Below, in pieces: positions 1,932 to 47,098 of a stretch of 58,116 nucleotides of DNA (position 1 is its first letter; the number at the start of each line of letters is the position of its first letter). Position numbers and translations under genes: made by a program. The notes beneath the pieces were generated by a model. The model saw only the letters and a list, made by a program, of their open reading frames with translations. It did not search any database and was not told the DNA's origin. The DNA is from a virus: UHGV virus genome UHGV-0195737. The stretch is one strand, 5' to 3'.

Positions 1932-4900
1932 TTAAACCTTTTCGAATAATTGCCCGTCGGTTAGCGCTTTGTGCCAGATACGGAAATTGCGGATGTGTCC
2001 GAATAAGTGGCGCTCACCTGTTGATGTTTGACCGCCGAATCTGATGTTTTTGTCCTGAGTTACTCCACCGTAAGAACATGTTGCATCTGCAACGGCTACA
2101 CCATTCATGATTACATGGAAAGTATCATCATCTTTAACTACCGCACCAATAATGGCCTTATTTGGCAATACGGAAGCGGCGGCGGAATTGATATAAGCTC
2201 CGTCACTTTTGGATAGAGACATGTAATACTTATCGCTACCACGGTTAACCGCAGCGATAACGCCCTGCCCCGTATTAGCGTTGGCAATATCAAAAACACG
2301 CGGCGCGGCGTTTGGCGCTCTGAACCAGTCCTTGTGAAGCTCGATCAGGAAACTGAACGGAGGACGCGCAAGGTTGTTTTTAGTCGTAATGCTTACTAGA
2401 TCGCTCGCACGGGTAGAAGGAGTTGAACCTGAGCAAATATACGATGATGCATTCGGGCCAAGCTCGACTTGAGGTGTCGCTAGTTCCATGTAGTCGCCGG
2501 ACACGAACGCGCTAACCGGAGCAAGCTGAATTTGTGCAGTAACCAGCGTTACGGTTGATTTATACGTCACCACTGCGCGATTCCATCCGGTGATGTTGTC
2601 TGTTGTTACACTAACAGTGATATTGTCTGCACCGCCGCCTGCTTTCGTTACAGTCATGTCGCTTAGTTTGATATACGCATCACACAGGAATGCCAGGCTG
2701 GAAGTATCTTCACCACCAGCAAAACGGATACGCAACCGGACGTCGCTTGACGAACGAAAACGACAAGAAACCGTGACGTACTGTTCATCGTGCTGAGTAG
2801 TGTCGATAACGTTAGCAGTGATCACTGATGCCATGTTGCAAGCACCAGTACCGCCAACTGCACTGTCGTCGATCACGAATTTTCCGTACAGGAAACCGTA
2901 GCTGTCAGTTTCTGCTGTAGCGGTGATATTAGTTGATCGGCCCCAACTTGCAGGAACGCTACCGTTAATAAAGAAGTTTGTGCGAGTACCTTCAATTAAT
3001 AATCCCTCGCGTTCGAAACGTGGCTCATCAATATCAGCAATGGTTAAAACACCGGATTTATTAATATAAGTCGCAGTGCTGGCGCGGGCGAAGCCCACCA
3101 CTTTATCCGACGGGATGGATGTGGTTTCGTCGTTAACCGTTACTTTCTTATAGCCAGGAGCGAAGCCTGCCAGCATATCAAGTGAATCGTTAAACGGTAT
3201 CCATACGTCAGGAAATGGTGCTTCTTCATGAATAAGTGGATCGGATTCGAATTTAGCCCAATCCGTCCAGGTTTCCAAATTGGCGTAATAGGTGCGCATG
3301 TAATACAAACCCGTCGAATTGTACGGGTAATATAATTGCGTGGCCCCGTTTGTATAGTTGCCGTTTTTCAGTACAACCAGTGCACCACCATATTTGCATG
3401 GGTAATGCAGTTCGGTTGTTGCTTTTGATGATGCGCCCTGCCAGTAAACACCGGAATAAGCGGCGGTAAGCGTATCCAGATCGGTGTCAGCTAGTGAGCT
3501 TTTTTGTTCGTGCATAGCGGCAAGGTTGGTGCGGGCCGTGGCTGCATCGTTTGCACCTGTACCACCATGTGATAAATCAAGCGGAATCCATTTTGATTGA
3601 GTGTCGCTATAACAGCCCCACGATGTTCCAGTAAGCCCTAAACGCATAGATGAATCTGCGTTATATACCCAGGTTTCACTACCCCATTGAGCAAGGCGAT
3701 CTACTTTTAAGTTTTCTCTTGCTTCGTCGACTGTTACAGCCCCTGTGCCGCCCTGTTCAATAGCTAACGCCTTCCAGCAATTATCAACCGGACTGTAATA
3801 ACCCCAGCGGCCCGTCGCGTCGAGCTGAAGATAGCACCCTGCTGTCGAGTCGTCCATAGAATAAACTACTGTCCGATTGCTGCCGCTTTGATTAAATCGA
3901 CTAACCTCATTTTTTCTTGCGTGTCGCGTCCATTGTGGGCCAGTGCTTTCACTCCAACGATAAGTATAAAGCGAGCGTGTCCCCCACCCCTGGAAAATGC
4001 CTGTATATGATGGCGAACCATCGTTTACGCTAATGAAGCCTGTTAGATATGCTTCACCGTCCGCGACGTCTTCGGGCCATCCGGTGACGCCTTCGCGAAT
4101 ACGAATAAAGCCAATGTAAGCGGCGGGATTGCCGGAAATATCGGCGCAATCGCGCGGGGCGTTAGTTAGACCAATGTCACCCAATAACACACCAGAACTA
4201 AGAAAACGCGCCCATTCTGACCATGTGAAAGTTGCCGCATCAAAACTACGAAGATAAAACGAAGCATTATAGTTATAAGGGTAATAAATTTGCGTGCATC
4301 CAGAATCAGTATTAGCACTATTCCCAATCACAACAAGCGCACCCGCATTATTGCACGGATAATGGCGATCAGTAGTAGCTTGCGCGTTGAGTTTTTGGCG
4401 ATAAAAACCGGAATACTCGCCCGTGAGCGTATCCAGATCCGTGTCAGCAAGATCGGTTTTTTGCTCGTACATTACTTGTAAATTTGTGCGGGCTTGTCCG
4501 GCGTTACCGCCGCCCGTACCACCATAATTGATGCCTAACTTAATTGCCCCATCAACTGAATAAGCACCCCACCCCGTATTATTCACGAAGATGTAATTTT
4601 GGCCCACGCCGTCCCATAACTGCGTTTCGCCTGTTGAGTTACTCGTCTGCAATAAGCGGCTTACTTCATCCTTCCGGGCGTGACGTGTCCAGCCGTAAGT
4701 CCCATCGGCATTGTTATACATGTATGTATAAAGTGAGCGCGTGTTAGTTCCCACAAAACAGCCGTTAATGATCAGGCCGTCACCGCGTGCCAGCCAGCCT
4801 ACCAAGTAGACTTCACCGGAAGCGATAGACGGGAAACCCGTTGCGGTCGCCTCTTCCAGACGAACAAAGCCAATATAGGCTGATGGGTTAACTGTGCAAT

Positions 4901-5909
4901 CAGGCCAATCACGGCGATCAGCACCCAGGCCAATAAGAGATAGTGAATCTTCTGATAGTGATTTTGCTTGCTCCATGTAGGTTTTGGCGTTCGCTTCCGA
5001 AAGTGCGGCGGCGGTGGCTGATTCTGCGGCGGCGGCGGCATTAGCTGCAATTTCTTGTTCGTCTTCTGCAACATTGGCGGCGCTTGTTTCGGCAGCAGTG
5101 GCGGCTTCTGTAGCGATGGTGGCTTGTTCGGTTGCTGTGGTCGCTGATTCTGCGGCGTTATTCATCCAGATGTACGCCGTGCCGCGATGATCTTTTGCCT
5201 CTGCGGCGGCGGCCGCGGCGGCGGTGGCTTGTTCGGTCGCTACGGCTGCCTGTTCAGTTGCGACGGTTGCTTGCGCGGCGGCTTCGTCACGGGCCGTTTC
5301 GGTAGCGGTCTGCGCGGTCTGCGCGGCGCTGGCGGCATTAGTGGCGATGGTGGCTTGTTCGGTTGCCGTGGTCGCCTGCGTGGTGGCGGTGGCGGCATGT
5401 TTCCCAGCCAGTACGCTGTAATCTTCTGCGGCATTTTTCGCGGTAATAGCTTCATCCCGCGCGGCGGCGGTTGTTTCAACGTCTGCGGCGGTCGCGGCGG
5501 CGTTGGCGTTTGATTGCGCTGTTTCTGCCTGAATAGCGGCTAACAGTGCTTCAACCTGCGCGGCATCACCATAATTTTTCCAGTATTCGACGGCAGCATA
5601 GATCTCTGATTCTTGTCCGGTGAAATAGCGCAATGCCTCCGCTACGTCCTGGGCCAGCCCGTCAACCGAGATCGAATCGCACAGCAAAATACTGTAAGCA
5701 GTACCCGCCGGAATATCCGGTGATGCTGCCGGGGTTACAGACAATTCCGTTTCACTGACAATTTCAGTGATAGAAAAGATCTGAATGGGGTTACTTTTTA
5801 CGATAACAGTACACCCCACGCGGATCATGGATAGCGGCGCTTTAAAATTCGTACCCGTCCCGGTCAGCGTGTTACCGGATACGGCAATGCTTCCAATGGT
5901 GTAGATCAT
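1932..5909 (-). CDS. Long tail fibre protein, repeat-rich
   Basis: 1325 aa; Ala/Thr/Gln-rich low-complexity segment; two tandem copies of a ~250-aa module (TRHARK-EVSR, HYPC-GALVV-YYPYN). Confidence 0.65.
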   Translation of the reverse strand: MIYTIGSIAVSGNTLTGTGTNFKAPLSMIRVGCTVIVKSNPIQIFSITEIVSETELSVTPAASPDIPAGTAYSILLCDSISVDGLAQDVAEALRYFTGQESEIYAAVEYWKNYGDAAQVEALLAAIQAETAQSNANAAATAADVETTAAARDEAITAKNAAEDYSVLAGKHAATATTQATTATEQATIATNAASAAQTAQTATETARDEAAAQATVATEQAAVATEQATAAAAAAAEAKDHRGTAYIWMNNAAESATTATEQATIATEAATAAETSAANVAEDEQEIAANAAAAAESATAAALSEANAKTYMEQAKSLSEDSLSLIGLGADRRDWPDCTVNPSAYIGFVRLEEATATGFPSIASGEVYLVGWLARGDGLIINGCFVGTNTRSLYTYMYNNADGTYGWTRHARKDEVSRLLQTSNSTGETQLWDGVGQNYIFVNNTGWGAYSVDGAIKLGINYGGTGGGNAGQARTNLQVMYEQKTDLADTDLDTLTGEYSGFYRQKLNAQATTDRHYPCNNAGALVVIGNSANTDSGCTQIYYPYNYNASFYLRSFDAATFTWSEWARFLSSGVLLGDIGLTNAPRDCADISGNPAAYIGFIRIREGVTGWPEDVADGEAYLTGFISVNDGSPSYTGIFQGWGTRSLYTYRWSESTGPQWTRHARKNEVSRFNQSGSNRTVVYSMDDSTAGCYLQLDATGRWGYYSPVDNCWKALAIEQGGTGAVTVDEARENLKVDRLAQWGSETWVYNADSSMRLGLTGTSWGCYSDTQSKWIPLDLSHGGTGANDAATARTNLAAMHEQKSSLADTDLDTLTAAYSGVYWQGASSKATTELHYPCKYGGALVVLKNGNYTNGATQLYYPYNSTGLYYMRTYYANLETWTDWAKFESDPLIHEEAPFPDVWIPFNDSLDMLAGFAPGYKKVTVNDETTSIPSDKVVGFARASTATYINKSGVLTIADIDEPRFEREGLLIEGTRTNFFINGSVPASWGRSTNITATAETDSYGFLYGKFVIDDSAVGGTGACNMASVITANVIDTTQHDEQYVTVSCRFRSSSDVRLRIRFAGGEDTSSLAFLCDAYIKLSDMTVTKAGGGADNITVSVTTDNITGWNRAVVTYKSTVTLVTAQIQLAPVSAFVSGDYMELATPQVELGPNASSYICSGSTPSTRASDLVSITTKNNLARPPFSFLIELHKDWFRAPNAAPRVFDIANANTGQGVIAAVNRGSDKYYMSLSKSDGAYINSAAASVLPNKAIIGAVVKDDDTFHVIMNGVAVADATCSYGGVTQDKNIRFGGQTSTGERHLFGHIRNFRIWHKALTDGQLFEKV
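4990..5520. repeat. GC-rich tandem coding repeats inside fibre gene
   Basis: Repeated GGTGGCTTGTTCGGT-type units encoding AT(E/A)QAT-like repeats. Confidence 0.5.
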
Positions 5910-7265: not shown

Positions 7266-10200
7266 TTACCATGATCCGGTAATTCGCCCAATCTGGACGC
7301 GTAACACGCTATTTCCATCTCTGACAGAGATTGTTGTGTTCGTCCATTTCATCGCTCCTTCACCGCTTACTGATCCGTAGTTTTCGAATGTACCGGATTT
7401 ATCCAGCTTCCAGCCAGTACTACCGGAAACATAGTTATTTGACTGGATGTAAGATCCAATTTTCGCGTTAGTGATTGAGGCGTCTTTAATAAACGCTTCG
7501 CGCACATACATTGCACCATTTGTGACATAGAAAGGCGTTGTATATGTGCCGTTTGCCGCTGTCATTAATACAAAGCGGTCAGCAAGGAAAATACATTGCG
7601 ATTGCGTACTCGTACCGCTGCCAGTCAAGCCAAGCGAGATCCCGGAAAAATATTTCATGCCGTTGTTGTCTGCGGCGATCTTAACGCTCCACGTTGCCGA
7701 CATGTCGGTTTCAAGGCCAGCGATGGCGGTTTTATTTTCCTCAATTGATACCGATTGCCCCTCGATTGACGCCGTAATACTTTCAATCTGCGTGGCGGTC
7801 GATTCCTTATAGGTTGTAAACGCTTCGCTCCACTCCGTGATCGACGCCTCGTTTGCTTCCAGCGATGCGCTAATTTCCGCAAACTGAGTAGCATTAGCTT
7901 GTTCATGGGTGGCAAGCGCGGATTGCATTTCGGTAATAGCTGCCGCCACATCGTCGTCTATTTGCGCCTGTAGTTGCTCCAGCTTCTGCGCGGTTGCTTG
8001 TTCATTGGTTGCGATCGTCTGATTAGTTTCAGTGATTGCAGCCTCATTCTCATCAATCTGACTTTGCAGGCTATTAAACTGCGTAGCGTTGGCTTTTTCG
8101 TGGGTAGCGAGTGCTTGCTCCATGTTGCTTATTGCTGACGATATATCACCATCTACTTTAGCCTCAAGGTTGCTAATAGATTCAGATGTGGATGATTCCA
8201 GATCGGTGATCGTCTGGTTAATCTCCGTTATGCTTGCCTGAATATCTTCGTTGACCTGGCTTTCTAATTTTTCGATCGACTGGCTTGTCGAACTTTCAAG
8301 CGTTGCAATGGTTTGTTGCAGTTCGGTTACGTTGGCGCTGATTTCGTCATTGACCTTGCTTTCGAGTGTCGTAAGCGCCTGCGCGGTCGCTTCTTTCTCT
8401 GTAGCGATCACAGTGTCGATGCGCTCAATCTCCGCCTTCGTTTCTGCTTTCTGGTTTTTATACTGTGCCGTCAACGTGGTGCGCGTGCTGGTGTTAGCCA
8501 GTGAGTTATTCATAAGCGCAATAGCTGCGTTTTGCAGGCTGGCGCGTGTCTGGATTAGTTCATTTTCCTGTTCAGTTAACTCGACGCTGATTTCGTTGAT
8601 CTGGCTTTCATGTTCTCCAATTCCATCCTCATTGTTTTTCACGCGTTCTTCCAGGTCTGCGGTCGATTCTTTCAGATCGGTAACAGCCTGGTCAATATCT
8701 ACCGTGGTTTGTTTCAGTTCTTCCACATCGCCCATCAAGCCGCCTGTTACCTCGTCGATGGTTTCTTTAATCATGTCCTGAAATTGCTCACCCTCCATAA
8801 CTTCATTCAGCACGGCATCCGTGATTTCTTCGAAGTTTTCGGACGGCTTACCACTGGCTTCGATAAAGTCAGATACGCCGAAAGCGTTTTTTGTGCGCAC
8901 GTAAACGTAATACGTGTGGCCCGTTGCCATCCCGCCAAAAGTCCACTGATAGCCGCGCCCGGAAAATTGCGCTGATGTTGTTACCAGTGAGAAGTCAGTA
9001 ATCTGGTTTTCTCCAGCGTAATAGAATTCGTAAGTAGTATCAGTCGTTAGCGTGCTGTTGCTGATCGGGTAAACAGTCGCCTGAAAAACACCTGGCACCC
9101 AATTAACACCAGTCGGCGCGGCAGGCGCACCAACAATAAGATCTACCAGTGTTTCCGCTCCCTTCATCCCGGTGTCATTGCGCCCACGAATACCAAGCGA
9201 ATAATTACCGCACTCAAGGCCGAAAAAGTCATACCGGTAATTTTGCGTTTCGTAGCTCGCCACCACGCGCCCGTCGGTGTCATAAATGCGGATCTCAAAG
9301 GTTAATGCGCGGGTAGTGGTTTGAGTTTCCCAGGTGGCGCGGCATTGAACTGTTTCCGATCCAATGTTTATCACTTTCAGGTTTTCGATGTTCGGTACAC
9401 GGAAGTGATTCAGCGTGTCGCTGTTAACCTCAAAGATTGCGCCCTCATCGACAACCGCTTGCTTGTTCGGATCGTGCTGCGCGGCCTCAATGGTGTATAC
9501 GCTGTTATTTTCGGTTTCGGCTACGCTAGTGATTCGACATAAAACGGGTTTTGCCGCTTCGGTTGATACAGCAAATACAGTACCGTTCCGAATCCATGCC
9601 GGGGCCGCCGCTAAGGTGATCTCGTTTCCATTCACTCCGGTGATCTGGTGTTTTTTAAATTTACCATCGCTATCGAGCAAGCTGATGGTGTCGCCTGCCG
9701 TAATGTACTCGCTATCAACCTTATCAACCGTTATCACGTTCCCGTTATTCGCCACGATACGACCGCCTAAACGCGCGCCAGCACGGTTATTATCGAGAAT
9801 CTCGATAATATCCCCTGGTGTAAAGTGAATCGCGTCACGGGCCATTTTAAACGTGAATTTCGACGGCTCGCGTTTTGCTGTTTCTATCAGCCATTTGCCC
9901 GCGCGGTACGCTTGCCCGCGTGATGTACAGCCGAACGCCTCCAGTGTGGTTTCATTGTAACCATCGCGGGCGATTAGCTCATCATCCGCTACATACTCTT
10001 TTGATTGCTCCCAGCCGTTTTCCGGATCAGTCCAGGATACAATCACGGCGTTGTAACATTCCGCACGCGCAATGCTTGAACGGGTGAATGCACCATCAAC
10101 GACGTTTGCGTTTGTGATGGTTGCAATCGGATCTTGCGGTGCATCGAGCATTACAGTAAGTGTTTGACCGTCCCATAACGCAATCCCCCGGAACATTCCG

Positions 10201-11243
10201 GCAATGTTGTCCAGTAAGTCGCGGGCGCTCATTTGCTCCGTAATGTATGCATTAAGCGTCACGCGCGGCTCAAGGCCGCCATAACCATCGTCAACCAACT
10301 GATCGCAGTATTGGGAAAGCGTGTATAATGCGCCGTCGTCAACGTCAATATAACCAGCATGGCGGGCAAGGCCAAAACGCTCGTTTTTAACCAGATACCG
10401 GAAGATCCACGCTGGGTTATTGGTGTACACCTGTTTCATCCCGCCCAGCCATAAACCGGAATAAGTGCGCGTTTCCGGATCGTAGTTATCCGGTACATCA
10501 ACAATCAGGCCACGCATGTGATAAGTGCGTGTCGGCGTGTCGGTATACTGGTCATGATCAATCACCGCGCCCGCTACAGCGGTGTGAGGATAAGACAAGT
10601 TATCGTCGATAATTTCACTGTAGCTATTCCAGCGGGTATCATTCTGCAATAGATCGCCCGTGCTGTCAGGTGTTATGCGGCGAACGCGAATATCGAACGG
10701 TTTTTCGTCCGGCGCATCAATGATGTGTGATTCCAGATATTCACCGCTAATCTTACCCGGACCGATTTGCACGGCCTTAATCGCCGACCAGATTGATGAT
10801 GATGATGGTTTTACATCAATCGCCATAAAAACTGATGTTTCATGCTGGTTTGATTCGCTGTCACTTTCCACCAGTGAATCCACGCCAATATTCAACCGGA
10901 CGCGCGTCACGTTCGGATCTGATACCGTCCTTACCAGTGGCGTGTCATATTTCACCTGCGCGTTAACCATTACCGTAGATTCAATGGCGTTGAAGCCGTT
11001 GATCGGTGACTGGTCGGCAGTACCCGGACGCCAGGCGACGCTAACGCCTGGGATACTGGTATTACCCACGGCATCCGTAACAGGTGTGTCATTAAGCATT
11101 ACGCAGTTTAACGGGGCAGCGGTATTGACCGGACCGTAAATCGGCCCTTCACTCAATATATCCAGAACCCGGTAAAATTGCTTATGAAATAAATTGTCGT
11201 TTATTAATGTTGGTGTTTTTGCTTTACCACCGCCGCCGCCCAT
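7266..11243 (-). CDS. J: Host specificity / tail tip protein J-like
   Basis: N-terminus matches lambda J as recalled (DxxSEGPIxGPV, NDTPV); long central coiled-coil repeat region; position after I. Confidence 0.8.
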   Translation of the reverse strand: MGGGGGKAKTPTLINDNLFHKQFYRVLDILSEGPIYGPVNTAAPLNCVMLNDTPVTDAVGNTSIPGVSVAWRPGTADQSPINGFNAIESTVMVNAQVKYDTPLVRTVSDPNVTRVRLNIGVDSLVESDSESNQHETSVFMAIDVKPSSSSIWSAIKAVQIGPGKISGEYLESHIIDAPDEKPFDIRVRRITPDSTGDLLQNDTRWNSYSEIIDDNLSYPHTAVAGAVIDHDQYTDTPTRTYHMRGLIVDVPDNYDPETRTYSGLWLGGMKQVYTNNPAWIFRYLVKNERFGLARHAGYIDVDDGALYTLSQYCDQLVDDGYGGLEPRVTLNAYITEQMSARDLLDNIAGMFRGIALWDGQTLTVMLDAPQDPIATITNANVVDGAFTRSSIARAECYNAVIVSWTDPENGWEQSKEYVADDELIARDGYNETTLEAFGCTSRGQAYRAGKWLIETAKREPSKFTFKMARDAIHFTPGDIIEILDNNRAGARLGGRIVANNGNVITVDKVDSEYITAGDTISLLDSDGKFKKHQITGVNGNEITLAAAPAWIRNGTVFAVSTEAAKPVLCRITSVAETENNSVYTIEAAQHDPNKQAVVDEGAIFEVNSDTLNHFRVPNIENLKVINIGSETVQCRATWETQTTTRALTFEIRIYDTDGRVVASYETQNYRYDFFGLECGNYSLGIRGRNDTGMKGAETLVDLIVGAPAAPTGVNWVPGVFQATVYPISNSTLTTDTTYEFYYAGENQITDFSLVTTSAQFSGRGYQWTFGGMATGHTYYVYVRTKNAFGVSDFIEASGKPSENFEEITDAVLNEVMEGEQFQDMIKETIDEVTGGLMGDVEELKQTTVDIDQAVTDLKESTADLEERVKNNEDGIGEHESQINEISVELTEQENELIQTRASLQNAAIALMNNSLANTSTRTTLTAQYKNQKAETKAEIERIDTVIATEKEATAQALTTLESKVNDEISANVTELQQTIATLESSTSQSIEKLESQVNEDIQASITEINQTITDLESSTSESISNLEAKVDGDISSAISNMEQALATHEKANATQFNSLQSQIDENEAAITETNQTIATNEQATAQKLEQLQAQIDDDVAAAITEMQSALATHEQANATQFAEISASLEANEASITEWSEAFTTYKESTATQIESITASIEGQSVSIEENKTAIAGLETDMSATWSVKIAADNNGMKYFSGISLGLTGSGTSTQSQCIFLADRFVLMTAANGTYTTPFYVTNGAMYVREAFIKDASITNAKIGSYIQSNNYVSGSTGWKLDKSGTFENYGSVSGEGAMKWTNTTISVRDGNSVLRVQIGRITGSW

Positions 11244-40916: not shown

Positions 40917-41150
40917 TTAAAAATAATCCTGTTCCGTCCCCCAGCGGTTGTTTAAATACCCCACCAACCACACAAACCGCTCAATACTGATTAGCGGGGC
41001 GACCTTGCGATAATGCCTATCGAGTATCAGCCGCGTGGCTTTATCGCTATAGCCGTTTCTTTCTACCTCCGCTTTGCAGGCAGAAAGCGCCGCGCGGGCA
41101 GCAGTTTTAACGGCGTTAAATTGCGGCTCTGACAGGTTGAATAAAGCCAT
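40917..41150 (-). CDS. Hypothetical protein
   Basis: Start set at internal ATG with SD GGTGA. Confidence 0.35.
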   Translation of the reverse strand: MALFNLSEPQFNAVKTAARAALSACKAEVERNGYSDKATRLILDRHYRKVAPLISIERFVWLVGYLNNRWGTEQDYF

Positions 41151-41154
41151 ATAA

Positions 41155-41391
41155 TCACCACGGATCATCCCAATCAGGTGCGGCAGCCCAACAAAAACCC
41201 ATGAAAACACTAAAAGCGATTAGCACGCGTACACCAAAAAACAATTCCGCCCACGGTCGAATATCAGGAAGCGACCATGTGATAAACATTGCACCGACAA
41301 TCAAAACAGCAATAATGACAGTGCACCCCAGGAAAACAAAAAGCGCGGCTAAAAGCCACGCCCCCAAGAAATGAAACAGTTCTCTTAACAT
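41155..41391 (-). CDS. Small membrane protein (2 TM)
   Basis: 78 aa, two hydrophobic helices. Confidence 0.4.
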   Translation of the reverse strand: MLRELFHFLGAWLLAALFVFLGCTVIIAVLIVGAMFITWSLPDIRPWAELFFGVRVLIAFSVFMGFCWAAAPDWDDPW

Positions 41392-41595
41392 TTAAACGTC
41401 CTCAATCACCCCGCCTTTCACGCGCTCTTTAATATCCCACACATGAGGCATACACATTTCCTGATAATAGTGATCCGGCCTGCTGCCGAAATACCATTTG
41501 CCATCCATGTAAAAATAAACGCCCGAAAAATTACCAGGTGCGGCCTTTGTTGCTGCTTCTGGAATTTTCCATTCTCTGTAATGTTTAAACCGCAT
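41392..41595 (-). CDS. Hypothetical small protein
   Basis: 67-aa ORF. Confidence 0.4.
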   Translation of the reverse strand: MRFKHYREWKIPEAATKAAPGNFSGVYFYMDGKWYFGSRPDHYYQEMCMPHVWDIKERVKGGVIEDV

Positions 41596-41779
41596 GTAAC
41601 GATACCTCCCGGATAAGTTTGCTCAATTCAACATCTGGTAGCCTGCGAAAATGCTGTACACCATCGACAAAGCGCACGCAATAAACATCGCCTATATTGT
41701 TGTAGTAATAACAGCCACTAAAACCAATCCCGGCTAATTTGGCGTTGTCCGGTAATGTATAGCCACCAACCTTTTTCAT
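41585..41779 (-). CDS. Hypothetical small protein
   Basis: ATG start (track start is GTG). Confidence 0.4.
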   Translation of the reverse strand: MKKVGGYTLPDNAKLAGIGFSGCYYYNNIGDVYCVRFVDGVQHFRRLPDVELSKLIREVSLHAV

Positions 41780-41797
41780 ATTCAGCCTCACAAATAT

Positions 41798-41967: not shown

Positions 41968-42186
41968 TCACGCCTCCAGTAAGCCATAATCGAATTTTCC
42001 AAGATATTGCTCGATACCAATCATCTCGACACCCTGGACTTCCGCGCCCCATACAGTTACGTGATAAGCGTCCTCCCGCCATTGTTCGTGGCTTAACACT
42101 TCGTTTGCCGGATATTTCCGCCCGGCGACGTAAGCGCCCGGACCTACGCCACCCTCTACGCAATGCAGCATGATTTGGTTTTCCAT
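41968..42186 (-). CDS. Hypothetical protein
   Basis: ATG with SD GGGGTGGA; the overlapping Arg-rich track ORF 41867-42163 is judged spurious. Confidence 0.4.
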   Translation of the reverse strand: MENQIMLHCVEGGVGPGAYVAGRKYPANEVLSHEQWREDAYHVTVWGAEVQGVEMIGIEQYLGKFDYGLLEA

Positions 42187-42196
42187 ATCCACCCCG

Positions 42197-42379
42197 CTAA
42201 TAGCAAACCGCGTACATACAGATCCCGTTGTTGAAGGCTTTGATAATCAGGTCAATGATCATGTAAACGAGCATTACAGCCGCCGCCGGGACCAGAATCG
42301 CGAATAGTCCGCCTAACGTGCGCTCAATGATGAAGTGCGGGTTTAGTTTGCTTTTGTGGTTACGTTCAAAGTTTGTCAT
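42197..42379 (-). CDS. Small membrane protein
   Basis: About 60 aa from internal ATG; one TM helix. Confidence 0.35.
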   Translation of the reverse strand: MTNFERNHKSKLNPHFIIERTLGGLFAILVPAAAVMLVYMIIDLIIKAFNNGICMYAVCY

Positions 42380-42416
42380 TTTCCCGCCCTCCGTTCTGTA
42401 TACCTTTCGATTTAAG

Positions 42417-42475
42417 TTTACAAAACGGATACAGCAGGACAAGACAAAATGTATATTTATGTGATCGCAATCACG
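42417..42475. promoter_or_regulatory. Intergenic element B (homologue of element A)
   Basis: TACAAAACGGATAC...TGTGATCGCAATCACG; near-CRP palindrome. Confidence 0.4.
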
Positions 42476-42478
42476 CTG

Positions 42479-43099
42479 TTAATGAAGTACGCGTTTTTCC
42501 GGCTCATGAATAGGCTGTGCGTTTTTCCGTGCATCATTAAGCACAGCGATAGCCGCCTGTACGCCTAATTCATTAGCTCGCATATCATCGCCAACGAAAT
42601 TTCCGTAAAGCACCGGAATAAACGCCTTAACGTTCACTTCTTCGTGTCCTTCCTCAACAAATTTCTGTAACATCTTAACCTCAAAGATGCCTTTCATCAG
42701 TTCGCGCATACAATGCAGTGAAGCACTACCGAACTGATCCTTACTTAACGGGAAAATAACAGCACTTCCGAACGCGAGCGGATCAACTTCCTCCGGTACT
42801 GGTACGCGTCCGAATTCTTCCTCCATGCGTTTTACAAAAGAAAGGCAGAACACATAACGCGCAATATCTGTTTTTTCTTCCAGGCTTAAATCAACGTAAT
42901 CGCGGATTGATGCATCCATCATAATATCAACAATCTGTAGCGCCAGGTTTAAATCGGCGTCATACGCGCCAGCGTTCATATCTTTTAATACTTCGTGATA
43001 ATCCTTCGTTTCCACTTCATGAAAACTTGCGTCCTCCGCGTAGCGAGTGATTAACATGCCGTCGCTGCCGAGTGAATAAGCTGTTTTGATATTGTTCAT
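42479..43099 (-). CDS. Hypothetical protein (early operon)
   Basis: 206 aa from ATG with SD AAGGA. Confidence 0.45.
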   Translation of the reverse strand: MNNIKTAYSLGSDGMLITRYAEDASFHEVETKDYHEVLKDMNAGAYDADLNLALQIVDIMMDASIRDYVDLSLEEKTDIARYVFCLSFVKRMEEEFGRVPVPEEVDPLAFGSAVIFPLSKDQFGSASLHCMRELMKGIFEVKMLQKFVEEGHEEVNVKAFIPVLYGNFVGDDMRANELGVQAAIAVLNDARKNAQPIHEPEKRVLH

Positions 43100-43110
43100 A
43101 ATATTTATCC

Positions 43111-43443
43111 TTATAGTGGATGATGCCATTTCATTTCAGTTTCTGGATTGAACGGGTTTCCTTCGCTTGAAAGGAATAAATCACGCTCCCGTTTCAGTTC
43201 TTCCGGGCTTATTTCCATTTCGTCAATCTGACCGAACGATCCCGGCATCATTCGTTTTAAATCAGATAGCGGACGCATAAGGCCACAGCCACGTAACAGC
43301 ATATCTACCGCAAATTGTCGCCGCCCGCCAGCATCATTGAAGCGACGCGCCCACGGCACACACACGATCCGGCGTTCGAATTCAATGAATAGAGATAGCT
43401 TGTTTGTGTTAGCGTCATACGCTTTGTGGAATTTAATTTTCAT
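43111..43443 (-). CDS. Hypothetical protein
   Basis: 110-aa ORF. Confidence 0.4.
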   Translation of the reverse strand: MKIKFHKAYDANTNKLSLFIEFERRIVCVPWARRFNDAGGRRQFAVDMLLRGCGLMRPLSDLKRMMPGSFGQIDEMEISPEELKRERDLFLSSEGNPFNPETEMKWHHPL

Positions 43444-43626
43444 TTATAACACCTCGACATATTGTTCAAGATGCCATTGGCCTACCTCGTCGTAATCTTC
43501 ATCGAATATTGTTACCTGACCCCCTGGCCCGAAATAAAAGGCAGTAGCAATAAATTCATATCCCCACCACGCGCGGATCTTCTCACCGCCTTTCAGGTCT
43601 TTAACCTTCACCAATTTTATAGCCAT
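43444..43626 (-). CDS. Hypothetical small protein
   Basis: 60-aa ORF. Confidence 0.35.
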   Translation of the reverse strand: MAIKLVKVKDLKGGEKIRAWWGYEFIATAFYFGPGGQVTIFDEDYDEVGQWHLEQYVEVL

Positions 43627-43889
43627 ACGCCGAACATCCCATTTAGACCAGCGAACAACCGCCGCCAGTGGTTTTCAACATAAGCCCGGAACGGCTTAAC
43701 ACGAACATTGCGGGCCGTTAGTACGATACTATCGAAGTAGCGCGGCTCGATCAGCGTGCCATCTAAATATTGAACAAGTAACGGTCGTTCAAGATCGCTA
43801 CATGTTTTATTCAGCACGACCAGGCCAGGATCACTACGATATGCAGGCAAAACAACGAGATCACCCGCCTTTGCATCCCAAATCATCAT
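43617..43889 (-). CDS. Hypothetical protein
   Basis: First ATG (track start is GTG). Confidence 0.4.
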   Translation of the reverse strand: MMIWDAKAGDLVVLPAYRSDPGLVVLNKTCSDLERPLLVQYLDGTLIEPRYFDSIVLTARNVRVKPFRAYVENHWRRLFAGLNGMFGVWL

Positions 43890-44130
43890 CACATTAACCC
43901 CTTACCAATAAAGCTAATCACCGCCGCCAGTGCGCCGCAAAACACAACCGTAAACAGGAAGCAAATAACGCAAAACGCAACCCTTACAATATCCTTACCG
44001 ACTTTCATAATTGGCCTCACATATTAGTAATCAGTTTGATGATCGCCACCGTGATATAAAGCGAAACACTGAGATACAGCACCGCCACTGCTACCGCCGC
44101 GAGCAATGCGGCAATTTTTGCGAGATTCAT
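43889..44130 (-). other. Two coupled hydrophobic microprotein ORFs (about 37 and 39 aa)
   Basis: MNLAKIAALLAAVAVAVLYLSVSLYITVAIIKLITNM and MKVGKDIVRVAFCVICFLFTVVFCGALAAVISFIGKGLM; ATGA overlap with upstream gene. Confidence 0.3.
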
Positions 44131-44393
44131 TTGCCACCCTCCGCAATGAATTTATCAAGCCATTTATTATTCGCCAGACGTTCGGCGTCTTCGCCAAATG
44201 ATTTACGGTTACTTAATTCCTGGCGAGTAGGGAAAGGCCATTTATCCACCCACCCCGCAGACGTTTCGAATTCATAGTTACCGCCGCCGAAATCAATAAA
44301 GACGTCACTATCATCAAGACTTTCCGCAGTCCTCTGAAAACCTCTGCCGTTATTTTCGCTTAATGTTGTAGCTGTCATGATTCGATACCTCAT
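44127..44393 (-). CDS. Hypothetical protein
   Basis: 88-aa ORF. Confidence 0.4.
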   Translation of the reverse strand: MRYRIMTATTLSENNGRGFQRTAESLDDSDVFIDFGGGNYEFETSAGWVDKWPFPTRQELSNRKSFGEDAERLANNKWLDKFIAEGGK

Positions 44394-44671
44394 TAATCGT
44401 TAATAACCTGGCCCATACGCCCGCGATATTTGCGCATACGTGGATCGACATATTCAGGCCACTGCATATCCGGTTTTCTTTGCAGCGGGTAAAAACTCGC
44501 TTGCCAGTTGTCAAACCAGATTTGCTTTGCGTACAGGTCACTAAATCTTTTCGCCATTCGTTCCGCTGCCGTGCCACATAAAAAAAGCCCCCGATCGATT
44601 TGATCGCGGGCTTCTTTTAATACTTGCTCTTTTGTTCGTGGCGGCGGTGGCGGTTTTAAATAATCACCCAT
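44393..44671 (-). CDS. Hypothetical protein
   Basis: 92-aa ORF; Pro-rich N-terminus. Confidence 0.4.
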   Translation of the reverse strand: MGDYLKPPPPPRTKEQVLKEARDQIDRGLFLCGTAAERMAKRFSDLYAKQIWFDNWQASFYPLQRKPDMQWPEYVDPRMRKYRGRMGQVIND

Positions 44672-44687
44672 CGCTAACCTATTGATT

Positions 44688-45107
44688 CTAAAAAGGAATA
44701 TCGTCGTCGAAGTCCATCGGCGGAGGATTGTTCCCGTTATTATTCTGCTGCTGCGGCGGCGCTTTCTGCTGCTGGCCTTGCTGCTGGCCCTGCTGGTTAA
44801 CGTTCATGAATTCGAATTCACTGACCGCTACTTCTACAGCCGTTCCCTTCGTGCCGTCGTTCCGGTCATATTGCCGAACATCCAGGCGACCGCTTACCAC
44901 TATCTTTCCGCCCTTGCGGATATGCGGCGCTAATTTTTCCGCACGCTCACCAAATACCAGGCAAGTGATCCACATTGTCCGCTTATTATCGCCGTAGCCA
45001 TTCGTTACAGCTAACGAGAAACTACCAATCGCTTTTCCGTTTTGCGTGTAGCGAATTTCCATGTCGTTTCCGATATTTCCGCCCAGCGTGATTGAATTTA
45101 AACTCAT
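44688..45107 (-). CDS. ssb: Single-stranded DNA-binding protein
   Basis: OB-fold-sized N-terminus, Gln/Gly-rich linker, canonical acidic tail DFDDDIPF. Confidence 0.85.
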   Translation of the reverse strand: MSLNSITLGGNIGNDMEIRYTQNGKAIGSFSLAVTNGYGDNKRTMWITCLVFGERAEKLAPHIRKGGKIVVSGRLDVRQYDRNDGTKGTAVEVAVSEFEFMNVNQQGQQQGQQQKAPPQQQNNNGNNPPPMDFDDDIPF

Positions 45108-45748
45108 TAATTAATCTCCCCGTTAAGCTCTTTTAAGCGAATGTCATAAACGTCTTTCGCTTTTTGTTGTTGTTCTGAATCTTTAGGCAGTAGCTTCCAG
45201 CACTTGCCGAAGATCTCGCGCAATTTGTTCGCGTCCGGCGCTTTCGCTGCCGCATCACAGAAACGTGCTAACACTTCATCAGGATTTGGTGGCGCTTTCT
45301 GCTGCTGCGGTTGTTGTTTTGGCGGGTTTTTCTGCTGGCGTGGCTGTTGATTTGTCTGTTTAGCATAAGCATCAGTATCAGCGTCTTTCGCGTCGTCTAT
45401 GCAGAATAAACCGTTCAAGGCATATTTCCGCGCGTAACTTGATGTTGCTCCTGTTAGCTGGCTTGCATCCATACCGCGCTTGTTTTCTTCCTCCCTTGCG
45501 TAAGCAGTTACCGCTATTGCGTCCTCGCCGTCGCTTAATGTCGCAGTGGCTTTAACGTAATAACGCTCACCAATCAGGATAATTTCATCATTCAGCGTTA
45601 GTGTGACATTTTGAAGTAGCGGTTTAACCGCTTCCAGAATATCCTCCGCTGAACGATAGCTATAACCCCCGAAGTTATTACGCTGATTCTTAGGCGCGTT
45701 AAGCGTCTGCTGAATCGTCCACAGTTTCTTGTGTAGCTCTGTTTTCAC
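45107..45748 (-). CDS. erf: Erf-family single-strand annealing protein
   Basis: GGYSYRSAEDI-type ERF signature; Gln/Pro-rich linker; GTG start with SD AAGGAG. Confidence 0.65.
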   Translation of the reverse strand: MKTELHKKLWTIQQTLNAPKNQRNNFGGYSYRSAEDILEAVKPLLQNVTLTLNDEIILIGERYYVKATATLSDGEDAIAVTAYAREEENKRGMDASQLTGATSSYARKYALNGLFCIDDAKDADTDAYAKQTNQQPRQQKNPPKQQPQQQKAPPNPDEVLARFCDAAAKAPDANKLREIFGKCWKLLPKDSEQQQKAKDVYDIRLKELNGEIN

Positions 45749-45858
45749 CCTTTAATCTCCTTCGCTGTTAATACCACATACAAGGCTTTATTCGCGGCGC
45801 TCCACATTTCGGCATCGTGAAGCATTTCCGCTACCGCCAGTTTGAATTGAAGCGCCTG
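45736..45858 (-). CDS. Hypothetical small protein (40 aa)
   Basis: Strong SD AGGAGGTGA; not in track. Confidence 0.35.
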
Positions 45859-45897
45859 GATAACCATAATGTCACCTCCTGTTGTTTACGTTATGTA

Positions 45898-46188
45898 TTA
45901 ATGGTATCGGACTTTATCGAGGGGTTTTTCCCCAAGCTGGCGCGGCTGCGTTGCGTGAAAGTAGTTGCCGCTTTCATTTTCCTGATACCATTTTGTTGCT
46001 CCCTTGCGACGTCCTTTAACGCTATTTGGTTCGCATTTTTCCTCATTTGCAAAGCGAATAGCTTTTTCCACTCTATCAACCTTCTGTATGTGCGGGCCTT
46101 CATCTTGCTCTGCTGCCCGTTTCATCCGTCGGCGGGCGCGGGCGTTAAGTTTGCTCTCACAGTTACCGTAAGTAATTTTCGCATTCAT
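45898..46188 (-). CDS. N: N-like transcription antiterminator
   Basis: Arg-rich motif ARARRRMKRAAEQ near N-terminus; resembles P22 gp24 as recalled; nut-like site upstream. Confidence 0.5.
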   Translation of the reverse strand: MNAKITYGNCESKLNARARRRMKRAAEQDEGPHIQKVDRVEKAIRFANEEKCEPNSVKGRRKGATKWYQENESGNYFHATQPRQLGEKPLDKVRYH

Positions 46189-46450: not shown

Positions 46451-47098
46451 TTATGGCAGGTTTACGATCTTTGCATCCACCACCACGCCAATAATTTTTG
46501 ATTCAGGGTTTAGCGGGATTGGTGGGTACAGCGGATTAAGCGAACGTAAAAGCCTTTGACCTCCATCAATGATTAACTGTTTAAACGTCGGCGTTTGCCC
46601 TTCCTCCAGTTGGGCTATAACCAGTTTGCCGTCAATAGCTGGCGCGTGCGGATCGACAAGTATCATCGTCCCTGCCGGGATACTTAATCCCTGCGGTGCG
46701 TTCATTGACTCACCTTTTGCGACCAGCCAATAACTATCATCCGAACAAATCACGCTCGTGTTAACGTGTGGTAGTAATGCGCGTTTTGCTTCTTCCATGT
46801 AGTTTCCTGCGTCTTTCCAGTCAATAACCGGATAACGTCCCACGTCGAGCGGCGGCGCTCCCGGCAACGTATTTGAAACTGAATCATCGATAACCATCCC
46901 GTCATGAGTGACCGTAAACTGCCGACGACCAAGCGCCCGCATAATCCGCGCAATATCTTCAAGATTTGGCTCGCGGCGACCATTCAGCCAGTGAGATAAG
47001 CCGCCTTTTGTGATCCCCATGAGATCCGCCAATGAATCCTGGCTCATGCCTTGCGCCCGCATGAGTTGTTTTGCTAAGTCATACCATTTTGTTTTCAT
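46451..47098 (-). CDS. CI-like repressor (HTH plus LexA-type S24 peptidase domain)
   Basis: N-terminal HTH (QDSLADLMGITKGGLSHWLNG); C-terminal AKGESM serine motif and downstream Lys. Confidence 0.75.
   Translation of the reverse strand: MKTKWYDLAKQLMRAQGMSQDSLADLMGITKGGLSHWLNGRREPNLEDIARIMRALGRRQFTVTHDGMVIDDSVSNTLPGAPPLDVGRYPVIDWKDAGNYMEEAKRALLPHVNTSVICSDDSYWLVAKGESMNAPQGLSIPAGTMILVDPHAPAIDGKLVIAQLEEGQTPTFKQLIIDGGQRLLRSLNPLYPPIPLNPESKIIGVVVDAKIVNLP

Follow-up and report, generated by a model that had tools for sequence, protein, structure and literature searches.

What do the compact genes encode that follow the single-stranded DNA-binding protein gene ssb in the virus genome UHGV-0195737? 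The stretch of DNA analysed here, called the window below, is 58,116 nt long, and the genes in question occupy positions 42479–44671, between ssb and two DNA methyltransferase genes. An earlier note on this DNA had counted at least eight compact genes in this interval and had pointed to the host-interaction genes (gam, kil, ral, abc, arf) at the equivalent position of lambda and P22, so that anti-restriction or anti-defence factors were to be expected. The count held up: the interval is filled by eight consecutive minus-strand open reading frames (ORFs), which are under purifying selection and have Shine-Dalgarno motifs at most of their starts. The whole picture is probably that of a segment of an early operon that is driven by a pL-type promoter, antiterminated by an N-like protein, and encodes an Abc2 together with seven core early proteins specific to the phage group. 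The eight genes are, in the order of transcription and with amino acid (aa) lengths after correction of the starts:

44393..44671, minus strand: Abc2-like protein, 92 aa, orthologue of mEp021 gp21 (phrog_656 'abc2 anti-RecBCD', E=1.5e-31)
44127..44378, minus strand: 83 aa protein (88 aa if the ORF is extended to 44393), orthologue of mEp021 gp22 (phrog_28542, E=3.8e-37)
44017..44130, minus strand: predicted single-pass membrane peptide, 37 aa (grand average of hydropathy, GRAVY, 1.84; hydrophobic span about residues 6–31)
43889..44008, minus strand: predicted single-pass membrane peptide, 39 aa (GRAVY 1.6; GAGG 7 nt upstream of the ATG at 44008)
43617..43889, minus strand: basic protein, 90 aa, orthologue of mEp021 gp23 (phrog_28396, E=3.5e-52)
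43444..43626, minus strand: acidic protein, 60 aa, isoelectric point (pI) 4.7 (phrog_34199, E=5.9e-37)
43111..43443, minus strand: 110 aa protein, orthologue of mEp021 gp24, first gene of the trio described below (phrog_34371, E=1.1e-74)
42479..43099, minus strand: acidic protein, 206 aa, orthologue of mEp021 gp25, second gene of the trio (phrog_1515, E=1.5e-55)

The window is an E. coli prophage of the mEp021 group (mEpimmI), a group of Nus-dependent, non-lambdoid temperate phages (PMC11893012). In this region it shares 82–88% DNA identity with all sequenced relatives, namely the seven coliphages mEp021, mEp010, mEp013, mEp044, mEp515, mEp554, and MagusPhagus, and related prophages with the same range of DNA identity are present in 35 of 5,426 complete E. 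coli genomes. The proteins gp21 to gp25 of mEp021 (MH706966), along with the unannotated peptides between gp22 and gp23, are direct orthologues of the block proteins, with 68–93% amino acid identity and conserved order; gp21 already carries the annotation 'putative anti-RecBCD protein'. Compared with the sequenced phages of the group, the window is a more divergent member and has a rare extra gene between the 206 aa gene and the 72 aa gene downstream of the block.

Eight real genes in an invariant core

Intact orthologues of every ORF of the block were found in eight relatives, with pooled ratios of non-synonymous to synonymous differences (pN/pS) between 0.12 and 0.34. Over all loci collected, with 14–53 distinct orthologous DNA sequences per gene, the range was 0.13–0.38, the values for erf and ssb being 0.14 and 0.09, respectively. 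The highest pN/pS of any 15-codon window in the block genes was 0.50, and there was no diversifying selection. Neighbouring stops and starts overlap or abut throughout the block. Because of the low pN/pS values, the Shine-Dalgarno motifs, and the coupled stops and starts, the ORFs of the block are more than chance ORFs, and all eight, both micro-ORFs included, are real genes. The same series of lengths (92, 83, 37, 39, 90, 60, 110, and 206 aa) results from the gene calls on a public contig with an identical 206 aa gene (JGI metagenome 3300045988), and a 54.6 kb IMG/VR contig from this metagenome (L015) showed 97–100% identity for every protein tested. Several starts had to be corrected. All homologues of the 216 aa ORF are 206 aa long, from an internal ATG at 43099; the ORF of 88 aa is most likely 83 aa long (start at 44378), the ORF of 91 aa becomes 90 aa, and the ORF of 43 aa (GTG at 44020) becomes 39 aa from the ATG at 44008.

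For the two micro-ORFs, the alternative that small ORFs are chance ORFs over a regulatory region, and not genes, had to be considered most carefully. In the annotation of mEp021, a hairpin terminator (TERM_2) lies within the 37 aa ORF and both peptides are missing, and the stem of the hairpin is conserved in the window (44097–44113, minus strand; 5709–5725 in L001). However, the U-tract is replaced in the window by GGTAGCAG, and both micro-ORFs are intact in 43 of the 43 loci that were collected independently of anchors in the block, with pN/pS values of 0.24 and 0.38 despite pS values of 0.3–0.5. Depending on the set of sequences, pN/pS was 0.17–0.24 for the 37 aa gene (pS up to 0.74) and 0.34–0.38 for the 39 aa gene. 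Both have good Shine-Dalgarno motifs and coupled starts, that of the 37 aa gene being strong (GGAGGG) and its ATG overlapping the stop of the 83 aa gene, and both are called in MagusPhagus, mEp010, and mEp554 and on contigs with an identical 206 aa gene. We therefore give chance ORFs hardly any credence. As for TERM_2, there are two readings: the terminator is not conserved, or one stretch of mEp021 serves both as a coding sequence and as a terminator.

The block is also rigid. When the N-like protein, which lies outside the block, was used as an anchor, 43 IMG/VR contigs of sufficient length were obtained; the block genes were present in all of them in identical order, except that the 206 aa gene was found in 42, the sole locus without it being a contig that ends early. 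Between abc2 and the 206 aa gene, the distances from gene to gene were essentially constant across these 43 loci, with no insertion or cassette exchange, and with other anchors 54–55 of 55 loci agreed with a core, colinear block. Thus, the eight genes are an invariant core of the mEp021 group, not a variable accessory island. Insertions and cassette exchange occur solely outside the block, namely on both sides of erf, towards the Kil-like 40 aa gene and towards ssb, in the gap that separates ssb from abc2, and downstream of the 206 aa gene, before the 72 aa gene. Comparison of positions 44671–45900 of the window with L003, L006, and other loci revealed inserts at three sites. The 40 aa gene is separated from erf by an insert of about 460 nt (an HNH endonuclease in E. 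coli E21845/O/A), erf from ssb by one of about 585 nt, and ssb from abc2 by one of about 540 nt ('endonuclease VII' in mEp554). None of the inserts flanking the recombination genes is present in the window. The gap that separates the 72 aa gene from the 206 aa gene is 98–293 nt long, depending on the locus, and contains, in the window, the following ORF:

42197..42379, minus strand: membrane-type ORF of the variable slot, hydrophobic C-terminus, 60 aa (81 aa from a TTG, 42197–42442)

This ORF was found in only 4 of 55 and 3 of 43 related loci. The gap that harbours it is the region's real variable 'moron' slot, in which a search for accessory exclusion or counter-defence genes would be more promising than in the block. 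The pattern of the block is unlike the patchy distribution and fast turnover common in counter-defence genes, although core genes of this kind, such as Abc2, exist.

The Abc2-like protein and its DUF2737-like neighbour

The earlier note had described all genes of the block as devoid of recognisable motifs. This does not hold for two of them, the 92 aa protein, which is an Abc2 homologue, and the 83/88 aa protein, which appears to share a C-terminal motif with DUF2737. In BLASTP, a Lederbergvirus protein encoded at the abc2 position matches the 92 aa protein with 40% identity (E=1e-18), and tblastn shows 37–40% identity of the 92 aa protein to abc2-position genes in Lederbergvirus and Stx phages. 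A profile built from the mEp021 group only aligned in hhalign with a P22/Sf6/JEP4 Abc2 profile at 97.5% (E=5.7e-12) over 81 columns, comprising residues 12–92, and the local profile of the 92 aa family matches P22 Abc2 at E=6.5e-4. Its proline P62 is invariant and is aligned with P68 of P22 Abc2, the residue that occupies the PpiB active site in the RecBCD-Abc2-PpiB structure (PMC9836394). The C-terminal motif PEY(V/I)DPR(M/L)R.YR.R.G..ND is conserved between the 92 aa protein and Abc2 proteins, and in an alignment of seven proteins that includes Sf6 gp25 and JEP4_30 the residues P72, Y74, D76, R78, R80, Y82, R83, R85, G87, and D92 are invariant. Altogether, the 92 aa protein resembles P22 Abc2 (PF11043; PDB 8B1T/8B1U) in length (92 versus 97 aa), in its location in the early operon beside erf and ssb, and in the retention of the PpiB-site proline and the motif PEYxDPRxRxYRxRxGxxxD, but it is only about 31–41% identical to the Abc2 proteins of Lederbergvirus.

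Three observations speak against an Abc2. The window protein alone has no match to the Pfam model PF11043 at E<=1, a phmmer search with it does not reach PDB 8B1T, and there is only weak conservation in the N-terminal half of Abc2, which in P22 forms the helices that bind RecC. Of the seven aligned proteins, only four match PF11043 at E<=1. Because profile homology is strong, yet PF11043 and 8B1T are missed by the single sequence, the 92 aa protein is best regarded as a member of a diverged Abc2 subfamily, and we infer from homology that it would bind RecC.

The genes erf, ssb, and abc2 are contiguous in the window, as in Sf6 and in contig L011, whereas the order in P22 is erf-abc1-abc2; abc2 of the window directly follows ssb, and equivalents of abc1 and arf were not found there. 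Modules composed of an anti-RecBCD protein, an SSB, and an annealase have been catalogued for lambdoid phages (PMC12315714), and erf-ssb-abc2 of the window is a recombination module of this type.

A separate observation concerns the Chi octamers (GCTGGTGG) of the window. There are five of them, all in one orientation on the minus strand, at 2713, 12035, 21185, 31479, and 32434, in comparison to 1.05 expected from shuffles, and none of 100 shuffles reached five. Chi octamers in one orientation are of interest in a phage encoding an Abc2-type RecBCD modulator.

The second gene of the block encodes the 83 aa protein, the family of which has a pN/pS of 0.22. Some of its RefSeq orthologues bear the name DUF2737, and the scores of orthologues against PF10930 (DUF2737) are 18.2, 16.9, and 12.8 bits, below the cut-off of 25 bits; the window protein itself, whether 83 or 88 aa long, has no match in Pfam. 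True DUF2737 proteins, JEP4_29 (107 bits) and Sf6 gp23 (109 bits), are, like P22 orf56, encoded just downstream of abc2. In hhalign, the 83 aa family aligned with JEP4_29/Sf6 gp23 at 83% (E=9e-6) over just 33 columns, which represent the C-terminal motif, and the top three matches of the local profile of the 83/88 aa family were the DUF2737 ORFs of P22 (orf56), Sf6, and JEP4, with weak E-values of 0.016–0.22. The window protein shares with P22 orf56, Sf6 gp23, and JEP4_29 the position immediately, or nearly so, downstream of abc2 and apparently also, at its C-terminus, the motif P-x-P-[ST]-R-[QE]-E-L-x-x-R-x-S-F...N-K-[WY]-L. It differs in length (83 aa, versus 55–60 aa in the DUF2737 proteins), in an unrelated N-terminal half, and in its sub-threshold Pfam score. 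We read it as a probable remote relative of DUF2737/P22 orf56 that has retained its position. No functional work on DUF2737 was found in the literature, and the one paper retrieved does no more than mention the domain.

The remaining proteins and the anti-defence question

The Pfam, NCBIfam, PADLOC, and PHROGs scans covered all eight proteins and their flanks, and within the block only Abc2 (PHROG) and unnamed PHROGs were found. The 37, 39, 90, 60, 110, and 206 aa proteins had no match in Pfam, NCBIfam, PADLOC, or the PDB, only in unnamed PHROGs, and PDB searches with single sequences and family profiles were negative for the families of the 206, 110, 90, and 83 aa proteins. In an index of 5.8 billion proteins, all relatives among the matches listed were at least 70% identical and came from E. 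coli or gut phage contigs; scans of IMG/VR and JGI metagenomes revealed only relatives of 87–100% identity, and none were found among the GTDB species representatives. In tblastn searches, the seven proteins other than Abc2 occurred in 7 of 50,697 phage records, exclusively of the mEp021 group, and on none of 72,556 plasmids. No functional work on the block genes was found in the literature, the mEp021 papers do not discuss them, and six orthologues from E. coli UMNK88 were not found mentioned there under their RefSeq accessions. Structure prediction and Foldseek, which the earlier note had recommended, were applied to the 206 aa and 90 aa families. The AlphaFold2 models, based on shallow alignments of 19–20 close homologues, reached predicted local distance difference test (pLDDT) scores of 61.6 and 47.6, respectively, and three Foldseek searches with these low-scoring models (twice against the PDB, once against BFVD) gave no match below E=0.2.

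The order of the early-left region of P22 is 24-ral-17-c3-kil-arf-erf-abc1-abc2-orf56-ea genes (eaE-eaC)-xis-int. The seven genes of the block follow abc2 and therefore correspond to P22 orf56 and the 'ea' region, not to gam, kil, ral, or arf. The positional analogy of the earlier note is thus inexact, also because the Kil-like gene of the window lies upstream of erf, outside the block; what stands of the expected host-interaction genes is the Abc2-type RecBCD modulator of 92 aa. By the order of P22, the kil-like gene and abc2 of the window are both in their expected places. Family hidden Markov models (HMMs) were run without filters on every ORF of the early-left regions of P22, Sf6, JEP4, and L011, and lambda was covered by tblastn only. 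Among the seven genes, these searches revealed no homologue of Arf, Abc1, Ral, Kil, C3, gene 17, Gam, or an Ea protein, and none of the seven-gene family HMMs had a match below E=0.08 save that to DUF2737/orf56. Like the block genes, the P22 'ea' genes and the genes of the lambda ea/b region encode small proteins and lie downstream of a recombination module in an N-antiterminated transcript, but the P22 'ea' genes have no sequence relation to the block. In lambdoid phages, the ea region is in general a variable mosaic; the block of the window, by contrast, is invariant across its phage group.

Outside the block, the family profile of a 68 aa gene (41585–41791, minus strand) weakly matches P22 EaF (E=2.8e-4 in a small local search), which is the sole link found between the unknown genes of the operon and P22 ea genes. 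This gene is present in at least two very divergent alleles in the phage group (46–95% identity).

Do several of the seven proteins nevertheless inhibit restriction or other defence systems, so that the block would be an anti-defence island alongside Abc2 and Dam/Dcm? The genes are early, small, and lineage-restricted and lie between a RecBCD modulator and two DNA methyltransferases; several products are acidic (net charge of −15 for the 206 aa, −4 for the 60 aa, and −8 for the 72 aa protein); and the 206 aa protein diverges faster than its neighbours. Furthermore, the negative Foldseek results are no counterweight because the models are poor. However, these are invariant core genes in fixed order and without cassette exchange, the variable slots being outside the block, and their pN/pS values are 0.13–0.38 with no 15-codon window above 0.5. 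Pfam includes Ocr, ArdA, and many Acr families. No sequence match of the seven proteins to Ocr, ArdA/ArdB, Ral, Acr, Tad, Gad, Acb, and other such factors was found in Pfam, annotated PHROGs, NCBIfam, or the PDB, nor was any similarity found in PADLOC, and there are no homologues on plasmids or in other phage groups. The acidity, too, is far from the level of DNA mimics. The pI of Ocr is about 4.0. That of gp5.9 is also about 4.0 (PMC9836394), in comparison to 4.75 for the 206 aa protein, the net charge of which is likewise modest, and the idea that this protein is a DNA mimic was rejected as unsupported. Taken together, an anti-defence role for the seven is plausible but unsupported, and their core status weighs mildly against it. 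The expectation of the earlier note is borne out by Abc2 only; the seven others, lacking homology and belonging to an invariant core, lend it no specific support. An island of several inhibitors is possible, but we consider it rather unlikely, and the same applies to the presence of at least one true defence inhibitor among the seven.

The 206 aa protein belongs to a larger unit that extends beyond the block to a third gene:

41968..42186, minus strand: acidic protein, 72 aa, net charge −8, third gene of the trio, just downstream of the block (phrog_28996)

The 110 aa protein, the first of the trio, is the most conserved of the unknown proteins (median identity of 94% in the group, pN/pS of 0.13), whereas the median identity of the 206 aa protein (net charge about −15) is 78%. 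The best 120 of 452 homologues of the latter are 76–100% identical, mostly 206 aa long, and come from E. coli or gut phage contigs, and a phmmer search against 1.84 billion representatives returned one distant relative only, with 25% identity. This relative (218 aa, about 25–26% identity) is encoded on L012, a divergent metagenomic ENA contig of 1.8 kb, where a gene of 108 aa, 54% identical to the 110 aa protein of the window, lies directly upstream and a gene of 70 aa, 40% identical (E=3e-13) to the 72 aa protein, follows. Because the order of the trio recurs on this divergent contig, the 110/206/72 aa genes behave as a unit in which the acidic middle protein diverges much faster than its partners. 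The AlphaFold2 model of the 206 aa family shows an N-terminal three-stranded sheet followed by helices and is confident only for the N-terminal 45 residues (the sheet and a helix); the best Foldseek matches of this poor model had E-values of 0.32 (PDB) and 0.22 (BFVD). The trio, which is retained in all phages of the mEp021 group as well as in this one highly divergent lineage, might form a new phage factor of several subunits that binds a host complex for defence or DNA repair and neutralises it. The fast-diverging 206 aa subunit would then be the one facing the target, but we regard this as unlikely.

Alternatively, the seven proteins could be accessory factors of the phage's own recombination or replication, that is, analogues of Arf and Abc1 that aid Erf, SSB, and Abc2. 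They are contiguous and co-conserved with erf-ssb-abc2 in every genome, the DUF2737-type gene keeps its place next to abc2 across two phage groups, and the strong purifying selection is typical of core functions. However, no nucleic-acid-binding or enzymatic domain was found with Pfam or NCBIfam, two of the products are predicted membrane peptides, and the profiles have no similarity to Arf or Abc1. On L012, a contig too short to reveal a Rec module nearby, the trio follows a different upstream gene that is unrelated to the 90 aa and 60 aa genes. We therefore consider accessory factors of this type an unlikely explanation for the set.

A toxin-antitoxin module is suggested for the 90/60 aa pair by its annotation, as both the Prokaryotic Genome Annotation Pipeline (PGAP) and the mEp021 record label the 90 aa protein 'toxin-antitoxin system toxin subunit', and this label has been propagated on many RefSeq proteins. 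The arrangement is suggestive as well: the gene of the basic 90 aa protein overlaps that of the acidic 60 aa protein, which is translationally coupled to it via the overlap ATGGCTATAA, while the stop of the 60 aa gene abuts the start of the 110 aa gene. However, the name of the 90 aa protein has no support in Pfam, NCBIfam, PADLOC, or the PDB, and in Pfam and NCBIfam its 60 aa partner has no helix-turn-helix, ribbon-helix-helix, or AbrB-type domain. No promoter-like site was found on the minus strand upstream of the pair, and the two genes, which are part of a repressed lytic operon, are never present outside their fixed position in the mEp021 group. The 60 aa gene is found in 43 of 43 loci at a constant spacing of −4 nt from the 90 aa gene, with a pN/pS of 0.26–0.28, and the homologues of the 90 aa protein, which form 46 clusters, all derive from E. 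coli prophages and have identities of 70% or more. The pLDDT of the 90 aa family model, 47.6, is too low for interpretation; its best Foldseek match in the PDB had an E-value of 1.1, and the weak neighbours are of the Tudor/PWWP/KOW type, not MazF, CcdB, or RelE, which may hint at an SH3-like barrel. The toxin-antitoxin reading was rejected, since the searches revealed no family model, no autonomous promoter, no DNA-binding antitoxin, and no varied context, and we consider it very unlikely.

The predicted 37 aa and 39 aa membrane peptides resemble Kil of lambda and P22 and the type I toxins Hok and TisB, small hydrophobic peptides of phages or hosts, in being single-pass hydrophobic products, here of an early lytic operon. 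This is a resemblance only. Pfam, PHROGs, and NCBIfam revealed no sequence similarity between these peptides and the two of the window, and the Kil-like gene of the window is a different ORF. The two peptides or the 90/60 aa pair could also, more weakly than the trio, represent further new host-takeover effectors.

The operon and the significance of the block

From right to left, the order of transcription is cI-like repressor, pL-type promoter, N-like protein, Kil-like protein, erf, ssb, and the eight-gene block. Seven further small genes follow, including a homologue of Ipe, and then the Dam and Dcm methyltransferases; the block is therefore only the first half of the ssb-to-Dam interval, the seven small genes lying between 42479 and 40907. 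The flanking features are:

46451-47098: cI-like repressor; its own terminator is also present
46327-46299, minus strand: pL-type promoter (TTGACT-17-TATATT, 10/12 matches)
45898-46188, minus strand: N-like antiterminator (phrog_271 N-like, E=3.8e-9)
45745-45867, minus strand: Kil-like gene, 40 aa, just upstream of erf, outside the block
45107-45748, minus strand: erf (PF04404 ERF, E=2.2e-42)
44688-45107, minus strand: ssb (PF00436 SSB, E=6.3e-25)
40917-41210, minus strand: Ipe homologue, 87% identical to mEp021 Ipe, in the same operon downstream of the block

The orthologue of the N-like protein in mEp021, Gp17, is an experimentally characterised antiterminator (PMC11893012). A terminator scan found no strong intrinsic terminator inside the block, and no Rfam elements, tRNAs, or meaningful repeats were found in the region. 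The Kil-like ORF is 43% identical to gene 31 of Sf6 and very conserved (pN/pS of 0.09); it scores 21 bits with Pfam Lambda_Kil (cut-off 27.6) and matches phrog_2055 Kil at E=1.3e-3. Ipe stands for 'inducer of pleiotropic effects', and its overexpression reportedly leads to haemolysis and cell death (PMC11893012). Because the downstream Ipe experimentally perturbs the host (PMC11893012), host-acting early proteins do occur in the operon of the block.

On a larger scale, nearly all large ORFs from the pL-type promoter leftward (141–46327) are on the minus strand. Besides the early genes and the methyltransferases, this set apparently includes the genes for lysis, packaging, and structural proteins, and rightward transcription is confined to the replication block at 47.4–54.8 kb. 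The tail region contains two ORFs of exactly 1325 aa each (1932–5909 and 7266–11243, minus strand) that are not paralogues, their shared similarity being only low-complexity and Ala/Thr/Glu-rich (E=0.006). The GC content falls to 0.30 in the final kilobase (57–58 kb), which may be a prophage/host junction.

In the reading that we favour, transcription would start at the pL-type promoter beside the cI-like repressor gene and would be rendered terminator-resistant by the N-like protein. The transcript would run through the kil-like gene, erf, ssb, and the eight translationally coupled genes to Dam and Dcm, such co-transcription being suggested by the arrangement. The 92 aa Abc2 would bind RecC of the host RecBCD, so that the nuclease would stop destroying phage DNA ends, and the modified RecBCD would be redirected to recombination mediated by Erf and SSB. 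The 83 aa protein would correspond to P22 orf56/DUF2737, which usually follows abc2, and the 37 aa and 39 aa products would be peptides of the inner membrane. The six remaining genes would be group-specific core early genes, positionally equivalent to the 'ea' genes of P22 and lambda, and their products would most likely be small host-takeover factors that bind proteins or act on the membrane in lytic growth. Several points weigh against this picture. A role in host takeover is deduced from position, size, and precedent, six of the eight proteins being without homology or a fold match that bears on function. A function in the DNA metabolism of the phage itself would likewise agree with strict conservation throughout the group, and the presence of TERM_2 in mEp021 means that read-through there depends on antitermination.

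The phage group to which the block belongs has been published, and orthologues of the block proteins have already been deposited as hypothetical proteins. The block is thus not yet the discovery of a new system, and is a 'known unknown' rather than a demonstrated anti-defence island. What has been gained is that a diverged Abc2 subfamily is recognised that the Pfam model misses, that the propagated label 'toxin-antitoxin toxin' of the 90 aa protein is corrected as unsupported, and that the variable accessory slots of the phage group are shown to lie beside the block, not inside it. In human faecal samples, mEp021-type phages are reportedly as common as lambdoid phages (PMC11893012), yet every member carries a fixed set of seven early genes without known function, for which experiments can now be narrowed to three units: the 110/206/72 aa trio, the 90/60 aa pair, and the two membrane peptides.

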